Shown here: one piece after another, positions 792 to 1,102 of the stretch
How positions within the stretch are numbered: position 1 is the stretch's first letter
How the letters are laid out: every line of letters begins with the position of its first letter
Source: a virus
Taxonomy: Duplodnaviria; Heunggongvirae; Uroviricota; Caudoviricetes
Virus record (IMG/VR): IMGVR_UViG_2602041568_000011
Length of the DNA stretch: 5,365 nt
Direction: 5' to 3' (one strand)
The notes under the pieces: generated by a model
Told to the model about the DNA's origin: nothing
What the model saw: the letters and a program-made list of their open reading frames with translations, nothing else
The model's database searches: none
Made by a program: the position numbers and the translations under genes

Positions 792-867
792 CTGGAGCGG
801 GCAGCGGGAATCGAACCCGCATCATCAGCTTGGAAGGCTGAGGTAATAGCCATTATACGATGCCCGC
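792..867 (-). tRNA. tRNA-Gly (anticodon UCC), 76 nt with encoded CCA
   Basis: Sense sequence GCGGGCATCGTATAATGGCTATTACCTCAGCCTTCCAAGCTGATGATGCGGGTTCGATTCCCGCTGCCCGCTCCA. It has a 7-bp acceptor stem, GGTTCGATTCC T-arm and anticodon loop CTTCCAA. It looks the same as E. coli glyT as I remember it. Confidence 0.9.
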
Positions 868-870
868 ATA

Positions 871-946
871 TGGTGCCGACTACCGGAATCGAACTGGTGA
901 CCTACTGATTACAAGTCAGTTGCTCTACCTACTGAGCTAAGTCGGC
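871..946 (-). tRNA. tRNA-Thr (anticodon UGU), 76 nt with encoded CCA
   Basis: Sense sequence GCCGACTTAGCTCAGTAGGTAGAGCAACTGACTTGTAATCAGTAGGTCACCAGTTCGATTCCGGTAGTCGGCACCA. Acceptor, D and anticodon stems are perfect and the loop is CTTGTAA. There is one A-C mismatch in the T-stem. It resembles E. coli thrU. Confidence 0.85.
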
Positions 947-948
947 AC

Positions 949-1025
949 TGGACCGCCACCGGGGACTCGAACCTCGCACACTCAACTTAAAGGGTTGACG
1001 CTCTTTCCTGATGAGCTAGTGGCGG
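949..1025 (-). tRNA. Atypical tRNA-like gene, 77 nt, anticodon loop CCUUUAA (UUU anticodon, Lys-type decoding if functional) with C33 in place of the near-universal U33
   Basis: Sense sequence CCGCCACTAGCTCATCAGGAAAGAGCGTCAACCCTTTAAGTTGAGTGTGCGAGGTTCGAGTCCCCGGTGGCGGTCCA. The cloverleaf folds with a 7-bp acceptor stem starting C1-G72, D-stem GCTC/GAGC, a perfect 5-bp anticodon stem TCAAC/GTTGA, T-loop TTCGAGT and encoded CCA. It has one A-C mismatch in the T-stem and a U discriminator. Isotype assignment is uncertain. Confidence 0.6.
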
Positions 1026-1026
1026 C

Positions 1027-1102
1027 TGGTGGCCCTTGCTGGATTTGAACCAGCGACCTGGCGATTATGAGTCGCTCGCTCTCACCACTGAGCTAAAGGG
1101 CC
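1027..1102 (-). tRNA. tRNA with CAU anticodon, most like tRNA-Ile2 (lysidine-modified, ileX/ileZ-like) rather than tRNA-Met
   Basis: Sense sequence GGCCCTTTAGCTCAGTGGTGAGAGCGAGCGACTCATAATCGCCAGGTCGCTGGTTCAAATCCAGCAAGGGCCACCA. The cloverleaf folds and the anticodon loop is CTCATAA. Overall it resembles E. coli ileX and the ileZ of stx-type lambdoid phages, recalled from memory. Confidence 0.8.

Follow-up and report, generated by a model that had tools for sequence, protein, structure and literature searches.

A four-tRNA cluster with a putative promoter of its own and a recoded second gene between the Q and lysis genes of lambdoid Escherichia coli prophages

We analyzed a 5,365-nucleotide (nt) stretch of viral DNA, IMG/VR record IMGVR_UViG_2602041568_000011 (the window), in which four tRNA genes follow one another between the gene of a late antiterminator Q and that of a holin. 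ARAGORN and the Rfam tRNA model both recover the four genes, with the anticodons CAU, UUU, UGU and UCC in gene order and with spacers of 1, 2 and 3 nt (ARAGORN), as an initial annotation of this DNA had described, and all four encode the CCA of the 3' end. Scores against the Rfam model, whose gathering score is 29 bits, are 72.5, 44.4, 73.8 and 64.9 bits for genes 1 to 4 (E-values from 3e-7 to 2e-15) and are far above chance; matches to the plastid-ycf2 entry of Rfam are artefacts, reverse complements of the tRNAs. The end of the cluster at 1102 stands as first given, its start moves from 792 to 793, and the strand, which had been left unstated, is minus. Pfam matches on both sides (Table 1) bear out the placement between Q and holin, and the Q homologue in RefSeq is labelled 'bacteriophage antitermination protein Q'. 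From the evidence set out below, we consider it highly probable that the four genes form one operon with its own promoter, that a lambdoid E. coli prophage carries this operon as cargo between its Q/pR'/tR' switch and its lysis cassette, and that it is a variant, differing in gene composition, of the ileZ-argN-argO locus known from Shiga toxin (Stx) phages.

Table 1. Positions of the tRNA genes, their putative control signals and the neighboring genes in the window.
Feature	Position	Strand	Basis
tRNA CAU gene (gene 1; tRNA-Ile2 type, ileZ allele)	1102..1027	minus	ARAGORN and Rfam tRNA model
Slot-2 tRNA, anticodon UUU (gene 2)	1025..949	minus	ARAGORN and Rfam tRNA model
tRNA-Thr(UGU) (gene 3)	946..871	minus	ARAGORN and Rfam tRNA model
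tRNA-Gly(UCC) (gene 4)	867..793	minus	ARAGORN and Rfam tRNA model
Putative sigma-70 promoter of the tRNA operon: -35 TTGCAA (1140..1135), 17-nt spacer, -10 TATTAT (1117..1112)	1140..1112	minus	consensus scan and comparison
pR'-like late promoter, TTGCAA-17-TATATT, overlapping the end of Q	1313..1285	minus	consensus scan, 9/12
tR'-like intrinsic terminator, 8-bp GC-rich hairpin and U tract	1233..1201 (hairpin 1233..1208)	minus	fold
Structured trailer after tRNA-Gly, three long hairpins	791..609	minus	fold
Intrinsic terminator, 70 nt before the holin start	585..570	minus	terminator scan and fold
Late antiterminator Q, upstream boundary of the slot	1992..1297	minus	Pfam PF06323 Phage_antiter_Q, 307 bits
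Holin, downstream boundary of the slot	500..285	minus	Pfam PF04971 bacteriophage P21 holin S, 121 bits
RusA gene	2342..1983	minus	Pfam
DUF968 gene	3404..2355	minus	Pfam

Compared gene by gene, the cluster is of mosaic origin, as had been suggested from the host-like Thr and Gly genes and from stem mismatches in the other two, which are indeed present (A27.C43 in the CAU tRNA, A51.C63 in the UUU tRNA). In the Stx locus of Stx2a_F349 (AP012530), promoter and ileZ match the window's promoter and gene 1 at 100% identity, and the similarity starts exactly at the -35 hexamer, the sequence upstream of it being unrelated. It had been remarked that Stx-type phages carry ileZ-argN-argO in the same slot with a different set of isotypes; this is true, and the locus is in fact homologous (ileZ 100%, argN 65/77), sharing the position after Q, the promoter and ileZ, and the scaffold of the second gene with its A51.C63 mismatch and U73. 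The two differ in the loop of that gene, which is CUUCGAA (UCG) in the Stx locus and CCUUUAA in the window, in the third position, where argO(UCU) is replaced in the window by copies of thrU and glyT, and in what follows, stx in the one case and a lysis cassette in the other.

Gene 1 had been called Ile2/Met-type, and the Ile2 part of that label holds. Its body is ileX-like (68/76 identical to K-12 ileX), the acceptor pairs C4-G69 and C5-G68, which are used by TilS, are retained, and C6-G67 has become a compensated U6-A67, so that gene 1, judged from its sequence, is an Ile2-type tRNA for which conversion of C34 to lysidine and charging with Ile are predicted; it is called tRNA-Ile in RefSeq. 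The host-like appearance of genes 3 and 4 proves to be complete identity with mature K-12 thrU (76/76) and mature K-12 glyT (75/75), without host flank in either case. Since Thr genes of sister clusters with the same spacers carry U16C and U20C (31 loci), the architecture predates the host-identical Thr allele, and the identity with the host could stem from gene conversion by the host copy. Nucleotide diversity (pi) in ileZ, Thr and Gly is 0.004-0.007 despite different flanks, which, being non-homologous between contexts, are useless as a baseline for pi.

The second gene (slot 2), earlier described as an atypical UUU tRNA, deserves that description, which can now be refined: by sequence comparison it is a phage Arg tRNA whose loop has been changed from CUUCUAA or CUUCGAA to CCUUUAA, a 7-nt loop with C33, anticodon UUU and A37. 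It is 65/77 identical to Stx argN(UCG), with which it has the A51.C63 T-stem mismatch in common, and 66/77 identical to an allele of sister clusters, Arg(UCU), from whose loop it differs by U33C and C35U. A captured host tRNA-Lys was ruled out, as K-12 lysT matches at only 47/79 positions against 65-66/77 for the phage Arg tRNAs, and a register shift to an ochre suppressor (UUA) was rejected because by inspection no 5-bp stem is available for the shifted 7-nt loop in the window allele. The sister clusters (ileZ-Arg(UCU)-Thr-Gly, ileZ-UUU-argO of the PPompW type and ileZ-UUU, in E. coli and Shigella prophages) resemble the window in architecture, in the 1/2/3-nt spacers and in the slot-2 stem CAAC/GUUG; the Arg(UCU) allele differs in its canonical loop CUUCUAA, in a T stem whose mismatch is repaired to A51-U63 or G51-C63 and, for the commonest form of the allele, in G73, and the PPompW UUU copies differ by a 1-nt deletion in the D stem.

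Although slot 2 is called tRNA-Lys in RefSeq, it has only part of what marks a bacterial tRNA-Lys(UUU): the anticodon and A37 in a 7-nt loop are present, and U33, A73 and descent from tRNA-Lys are absent. U33 is the near-universal nucleotide of the U-turn, and A73 is the discriminator base of tRNA-Lys. ArgRS recognizes its substrates by A20 and C35, of which slot 2 retains A20 and has U at position 35. Since identity for LysRS is dominated by the anticodon, charging of slot 2 by LysRS is plausible.

The initial annotation had proposed a strong, near-consensus promoter a few nucleotides upstream of the first tRNA. The -10 hexamer ends 9 nt ahead of gene 1, and the GC-rich 9 nt in between, GCTGCGCCC, resemble the discriminator of stable-RNA promoters. 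The site agrees with the consensus at 9/12 positions, and such sites numbered 7 in a scan of 2.1 kb where 2.8 were expected; the match by itself is not beyond chance. Where the first gene is ileZ-like, at least six unrelated classes of upstream sequence can be told apart, and in nearly all of them TATTAT ends 9 nt before the tRNA and a -35 of TTGCAA, TTGCAG or TTGCGG stands exactly 17 nt from the -10, with a spacer that is constant in length and different in sequence between the classes. A fixed -10 and a fixed spacer length combined with a varying spacer sequence are what a functional sigma-70 promoter should show, and these comparative data strongly support a dedicated sigma-70 promoter of the tRNA operon. 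The proposed promoter is thus present and conserved, and the words 'strong' and 'near-consensus' remain unproven at a 9/12 match.

The description of the cluster as lying inside the late operon can likewise be made more precise, in that it is placed downstream of a pR'/tR' unit. The promoter-like site that overlaps the end of Q would be pR', to judge from its position as in lambdoid phages, and the hairpin behind it would complete the short pR'-tR' transcript that these phages have at this point; for this hairpin the terminator scan gave the plus strand only, and the minus-strand reading comes from a separate fold. An isrK-like match to Rfam (1280..1208 minus, 22.7 bits, E = 0.09) is sub-threshold, and we do not take it as a family member; isrK is the small RNA (sRNA) of Salmonella Gifsy-1 that is produced from the equivalent position. 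Beyond tRNA-Gly, the 233-nt stretch 560-792 folds with -81.7 kcal/mol (z = -6.0 against shuffles) and contains a perfect 16-bp stem formed by the inverted repeat 661-676/718-733. The hairpin region 609-791 matches no Rfam family; an sRNA is one candidate for it and a structured trailer another. The intrinsic terminator that follows is expected to halt transcripts from the tRNA promoter except where polymerase has been modified by Q, and an insulating role would fit its position, because a constitutive promoter upstream of a holin gene would need to be insulated from it.

In the working that we propose, the sigma-70 promoter would yield a single precursor of ~310 nt with a leader of a few nucleotides, spacers of 1-3 nt and encoded CCA, from which, by comparison with compact E. 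coli tRNA operons, RNase P would cut each 5' end and exonucleases would trim the short trailers. Without Q, transcripts would end at the hairpins and the terminator ahead of the holin gene, so that the lysogen could produce the tRNAs without setting off lysis; on induction, Q-modified polymerase arriving from pR', together with genome replication, would presumably raise the output. The Ile2(CAU), Thr(UGU) and Gly(UCC) tRNAs would supplement scarce host tRNAs for ATA, ACA and GGA, and the extra Thr(UGU) tRNA, and perhaps the UUU tRNA, may buffer against tRNA-cutting defenses of competing elements (P2 Old, PARIS, HepS).

To assess how widely the cluster is distributed, we searched complete E. 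coli genomes, of which 602 of 5,426 (~11%) carry the 310-nt cluster at 80% coverage or more and 327 carry it together with the end of Q and the pR' region. All the genome contexts fetched show it flanked by phage Q on one side and by lysis genes on the other, and it also occurs in isolated temperate phages. The cluster is thus lambdoid E. coli prophage cargo. The UUU gene is present in ~15% of complete E. coli genomes, and in a search of 185,579 species genomes the slot-2 scaffold was found only in those that represent Escherichia and Shigella species; the scaffold is present in 793 genomes, among which the exact allele accounts for 279 and the band of 95-99% identity for 474. Annotated copies of the cluster exist in hundreds of RefSeq genomes, and a literature search returned no description of this cluster or of a tRNA that joins an Arg scaffold to a UUU anticodon and C33.

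Two scans of IMG/VR gave ~185 loci from which we surveyed the architectures; counts are among the matches listed, and the survey is skewed to the UUU type, as the first scan used the T-arm sequence of the UUU gene. The arrangement of the window, ileZ-UUU-Thr-Gly, occurs at 88 loci or more, ileZ-Arg(UCU)-Thr-Gly at 32 or more, Thr-Gly alone behind a different leader at no fewer than about 16, and ileZ-UUU-argO at 11 or more; ileZ-argN(UCG)-argO is also present, as are a few clusters with a 5-6-nt loop in the second gene. In one E. coli genome ileZ-UUU stands by itself, and the lysis cassette behind it is a different one. Since both ileZ-UUU and Thr-Gly are found alone, [promoter-ileZ-slot 2] and [Thr-Gly] act as modules.

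Several of these sister loci, numbered here with the prefix L, merit description. Thr(UGU) and Gly(UCC), 3 nt apart and without ileZ or slot 2, are found at L128, L133, L135, L139, L149, L153, L172, L180, L181 and L184, where they are preceded by another promoter-like site (TTGAAC-16-TATGAT in L153) together with a conserved leader of ~65 nt with a long hairpin, GGTTCCGAGGG...CCCGAGGAACC; having a leader of its own, Thr-Gly appears as an independent module. In the ileZ-UUU-argO clusters (L004:2777-2852 and 14 other PPompW-type loci) the D stem of the UUU gene has changed from GCUC to GC-C; PPompW prophages belong to lineages of E. coli that produce Shiga toxin, such as O55:H7, O111 and O157 relatives, and their UUU gene (97.4% identity) is left unannotated by RefSeq. 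The short loops of slot 2 comprise 6 nt (CCAGGU in L137, L141, L146, L151 and L156; CUUGGU in L157 and L166) or 5 nt (UUAAU in L144, UUUAU in L168, UAAAU in L169, AUAAU in L205:4080-4152), and these genes have a shortened D loop and A73 and are forced by ARAGORN into Stop(tta), Phe(aaa), Leu(taa) or ???. L205 is the conjugative (MOBF) 270-kb plasmid pLG25p2 of Salmonella Muenchen, which carries a lambdoid late region with antiterminator, holin, endolysin and terminase; its copy of the cluster is 88% identical, with a 5-nt slot-2 loop and a decayed Gly gene. The phage record ON470583.1 (L198:18355-18437) has tRNA-Met, Thr and Gly and skips the UUU gene, and in other records as well the first gene is labelled Met rather than Ile2.

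The codon usage of a close relative fits a supply role for three of the four genes. Per 1000 codons, the annotated coding sequences of phage vB_EcoS-689R5 (99% identical), compared with 50 kb of K-12, contain 5.4-9.1 ATA (K-12 2.4), 11-15 ACA (5.4), 14 GGA (6.0), 14-20 GGG (9.2), 5.8-7.5 AGA (1.2) and 4.5-7.3 AGG (0.7), and AAA at 31.9 in late and 48.8 in early genes (33.8). The comparison, which the initial annotation had suggested, thus finds ATA, ACA and GGA enriched 2-4 times over the host and AAA not enriched in late genes. This enrichment makes a supply role fitting for the Ile2, Thr and Gly tRNAs, as it would also for an Arg(UCU) tRNA. Supply of Lys codons by the UUU tRNA was considered and rejected, AAA being unenriched in late genes and K-12 having at least five tRNA-Lys genes in one locus.

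The interpretation divides over slot 2. Among 19 distinct slot-2 variants 95% of cells are paired, whereas slid controls all fall to 29-53%; the acceptor stem is 100% paired although 6/7 of its pairs vary, and four pairs change on both sides, compensatory changes from which it follows that the cloverleaf is maintained. UUU and C33 are kept in 117/117 UUU-type copies examined, a comparison of low statistical power, and the UUU allele is the commonest slot-2 allele in a sample skewed toward it, occurring in several architectures and promoter contexts. The window allele itself has a full cloverleaf, a 7-nt loop, U36-A37-A38, the CCA and a score of 44 bits against a cut-off of 29.

A number of observations weigh against our reading of the cluster, most of them concerning slot 2. 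Its pi of 0.0145 is the highest of the four genes, 2-3.6 times that of its neighbors, and it has C33, the T-stem mismatch and U73. Most of the 474 genomes in the 95-99% band have the 1-nt D-stem deletion or U8C and receive no tRNA call from the annotation pipeline PGAP, and sister slot-2 genes with loops of 5-6 nt cannot decode. Beyond slot 2, AGA and AGG, the most enriched codons at 5-10 times host use, find no Arg(UCU) gene in this lineage, and the promoter and the output of the cluster are both predictions from sequence, with a consensus match of just 9/12.

The points on slot 2 speak for a rival reading, in which it is the remnant of an Arg tRNA and dead for decoding, C35U and U33C having destroyed Arg identity and the U-turn; the cluster would then be a three-tRNA supply operon with a structured spacer, in which slot 2, with ileZ 1 nt away on one side and Thr 2 nt away on the other, persists as a fold that permits clean RNase P processing of its neighbors. 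We regard this as a strong contender, though one rated short of an even chance. Within slot 2, the T arm and the 3' strand of the acceptor stem are the most conserved, and the anticodon arm and the variable loop vary most. The T arm and 3' acceptor strand make up the minimal RNase P substrate, so that a decoding-dead processing unit fits this pattern equally well. The slot-2 alleles of L144, L168 and L169 differ from each other only inside the loop, and the loop UUUAU looks like CCUUUAA without its CC, which suggests a decay series; decay also reaches Gly in the Salmonella plasmid copy. On the other side stand the compensatory changes in the stems, the intact form of the window allele, and the abundance and constancy of the UUU type described above. 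We therefore keep three outcomes apart: that slot 2 no longer decodes and is retained as a folded processing unit is quite possible, that it is a working, nuclease-resistant tRNA-Lys is possible but doubtful, and other roles take up what probability remains.

The other comprehensive alternative is that the whole cluster is mainly a counter-defense kit against PARIS AriB, P2 Old and HepS, with a UUU tRNA that is uncleavable and with Thr, and perhaps Gly, overproduced; Thr(UGU) is the main target of Old and a secondary target of HepS, and these systems reside on elements that compete with lambdoid phages. The prime targets of AriB are the Lys(UUU) and Thr(UGU) tRNAs, its site is U36-A-A-U39-C40-A41, cut between C40 and A41, a change of U39 abolishes cutting and A41C inhibits it, and the Lys and Thr tRNAs of phage T5 rescue infection from PARIS (PMC12409363). 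P2 Old blocks lambda mainly by cutting tRNA-ThrU, for which it needs paired CNG motifs (28-30, 40-42) and A37, and the tRNA-Thr(UGU) encoded downstream of Q in phage 21 protects against it (PMC12445682). Tail-tip proteins of siphophages, lambda J among them, trigger HepS of Gifsy-1, and HepS cuts Thr tRNAs (PMC13043305). Flooding with a host-identical tRNA has a precedent in the case of retron-Eco7, where a host-identical tRNA-Tyr under a strong phage tRNA promoter rescues the phage (PMC11555353).

The anticodons UUU and UGU of the cluster are those of the prime AriB targets, and UGU is that of the prime Old target. The slot-2 arm reads U36-A-A-G39-U40-U41 on a stem CAA/UUG and lacks both the AriB site and the CNG motifs, and codon usage leaves a Lys tRNA unexplained; an anti-defense role by resistance is plausible for the UUU tRNA, judging from these bases. 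It resembles the tRNA-Lys(UUU) of phage T5 in combining a UUU anticodon with changes at 39 and 41 (PMC12409363), but T5 is a virulent phage with a large tRNA region whose Lys tRNA is reported as a tRNA-Lys variant, whereas the window gene has an Arg scaffold with C33 and its resistance is a prediction. A second comparison is offered by the tRNA-Asn(GUU)/tRNA-Thr(UGU) pair of phages 21, SfI, Sf6 and ST64T, which occupies the same slot after Q and has one anticodon, UGU, in common with the window. The Thr and Asn tRNAs of the SfI/P21 type are altered at 39 and 41, in CNG motifs, and have a G27.A43 mismatch, and the window UUU tRNA is also altered at 39-41 and without CNG in its stem. The two clusters are nonetheless non-homologous, the phage 21-type tRNAs are unlike the host's whereas the window Thr equals it, and the window has no Asn gene. 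PrrC, which cuts 3' of U33, was considered as well; a literature search on PrrC and position 33 found nothing on C33 substrates.

For the remaining genes the counter-defense reading fares less well. The window Thr, being identical to thrU, retains the AriB site and the CNG motifs and should be cut like the host tRNA, so that an anti-defense effect, which is possible, would come from dosage alone, whereas the Thr and Asn tRNAs employed by other lambdoid phages are altered. The motif-free anticodon stem of slot 2 is shared with the Arg(UCU) allele and so did not evolve for a Lys role. The glyT copy has paired CAG/CUG and A37 and fits the published Old rule, but the Gly gene too is host-identical, and tRNA-Gly is not reported as an Old target in the main text of PMC12445682. 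A literature search for defense systems that target tRNA-Gly(UCC) found none, ileZ has no known link to a nuclease, and three of the genes are already explained by the enrichment of ATA, ACA and GGA. In a minority of phage copies (L131, L167, L008, L176, L184 and L055) G42-U43 of Thr has become UC or CC, which removes the 3' CNG and unpairs the top of the anticodon stem, a change of the same kind as in Old-resistant phage Thr tRNAs; as a sign of a counter-defense function of the cluster, its restriction to so few copies counts against. On balance, that the cluster is mainly such a kit is rather unlikely. About as unlikely is the specific proposal that slot 2 is an evolvable 'anticodon cassette', recoded by C35U and U33C into a reader of Lys codons as an uncleavable spare tRNA-Lys co-transcribed with an extra Thr(UGU), with the loop variation among sister genes marking an arms race and not decay.

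That the cluster might be a native chromosomal tRNA operon of the host, a case that the initial annotation had raised, can be dismissed: the identity of Thr and Gly with thrU and glyT, the one likeness to thrU-tyrU-glyT-thrT-tufB, produces partial matches in nearly every E. coli genome, but K-12 lacks such a cluster (its operon runs thrU-8 nt-tyrU-116 nt-glyT-6 nt-thrT-tufB, with a gap of 209 nt between thrU and glyT against 3 nt here), the window has neither tyrU and thrT nor the host spacers, promoter and flanks, and full-length matches are limited to the 602 genomes, with a place between phage Q and lysis genes in every context fetched, and occur also in isolated temperate phages.

The window holds further features away from the cluster. 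After the P21-type holin S gene, reading along the minus strand, comes a DUF1327/YdfR-like gene (Pfam). A gene for an FkbM-family methyltransferase (4317-5203 minus) is split into two open reading frames (ORFs) by a perfect (GCTGG)8.4 repeat at 4742-4783 (CCAGC on the coding strand) and matches PF05050 once repaired. A single ORF of 293-298 amino acids (aa) arises only with 4, 7 or 10 repeat copies; the window has 8, L088 6 and L202 3, and RefSeq shows two fragments. The split gene may be phase-variable prophage cargo or a pseudogene, and in its repaired form it gives a sub-threshold match to TRM5/TYW2 (25.6 bits against 28). Downstream of it, in an AT-rich stretch, an inverted repeat at 4094-4151, perfect over 25 bp and with a loop of 8 nt, could be a bidirectional terminator or the end of a mobile element. 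In the closest complete-genome relative (L001:2397-3062) the methyltransferase slot of the nin region holds instead a gene for epoxyqueuosine reductase (QueH); the prophage that has the tRNA cluster there also encodes an enzyme that modifies tRNA. Upstream of DUF968, a 129-aa ORF (3406-3795 minus) has no Pfam match, and the RefSeq annotation of relatives shows only a shorter hypothetical protein.

Genes for tRNAs downstream of Q have been known in lambdoid phages since the 1990s and were long taken as helpers for rare codons. Work from 2024-2026 has established that phage tRNAs can defeat tRNA-cutting defenses, including P2 Old against lambda-like phages (PMC12445682). A cluster with its own promoter after Q, and with roles in supply and anti-defense, is therefore of a kind already known, and the recoded second gene is its unusual part. 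Annotation pipelines disagree over it, slot 2 being called Lys or left unannotated and its neighbor being called Met. A single transcript would here join codon supply, by three genes, with possible counter-defense, by the fourth. If slot 2 is dead, it would be an example of a dead tRNA retained as a processing unit; if it works, it would represent natural anticodon switching that yields a new isoacceptor, and a counter-defense tool of the temperate phages that shape pathogenic E. coli.

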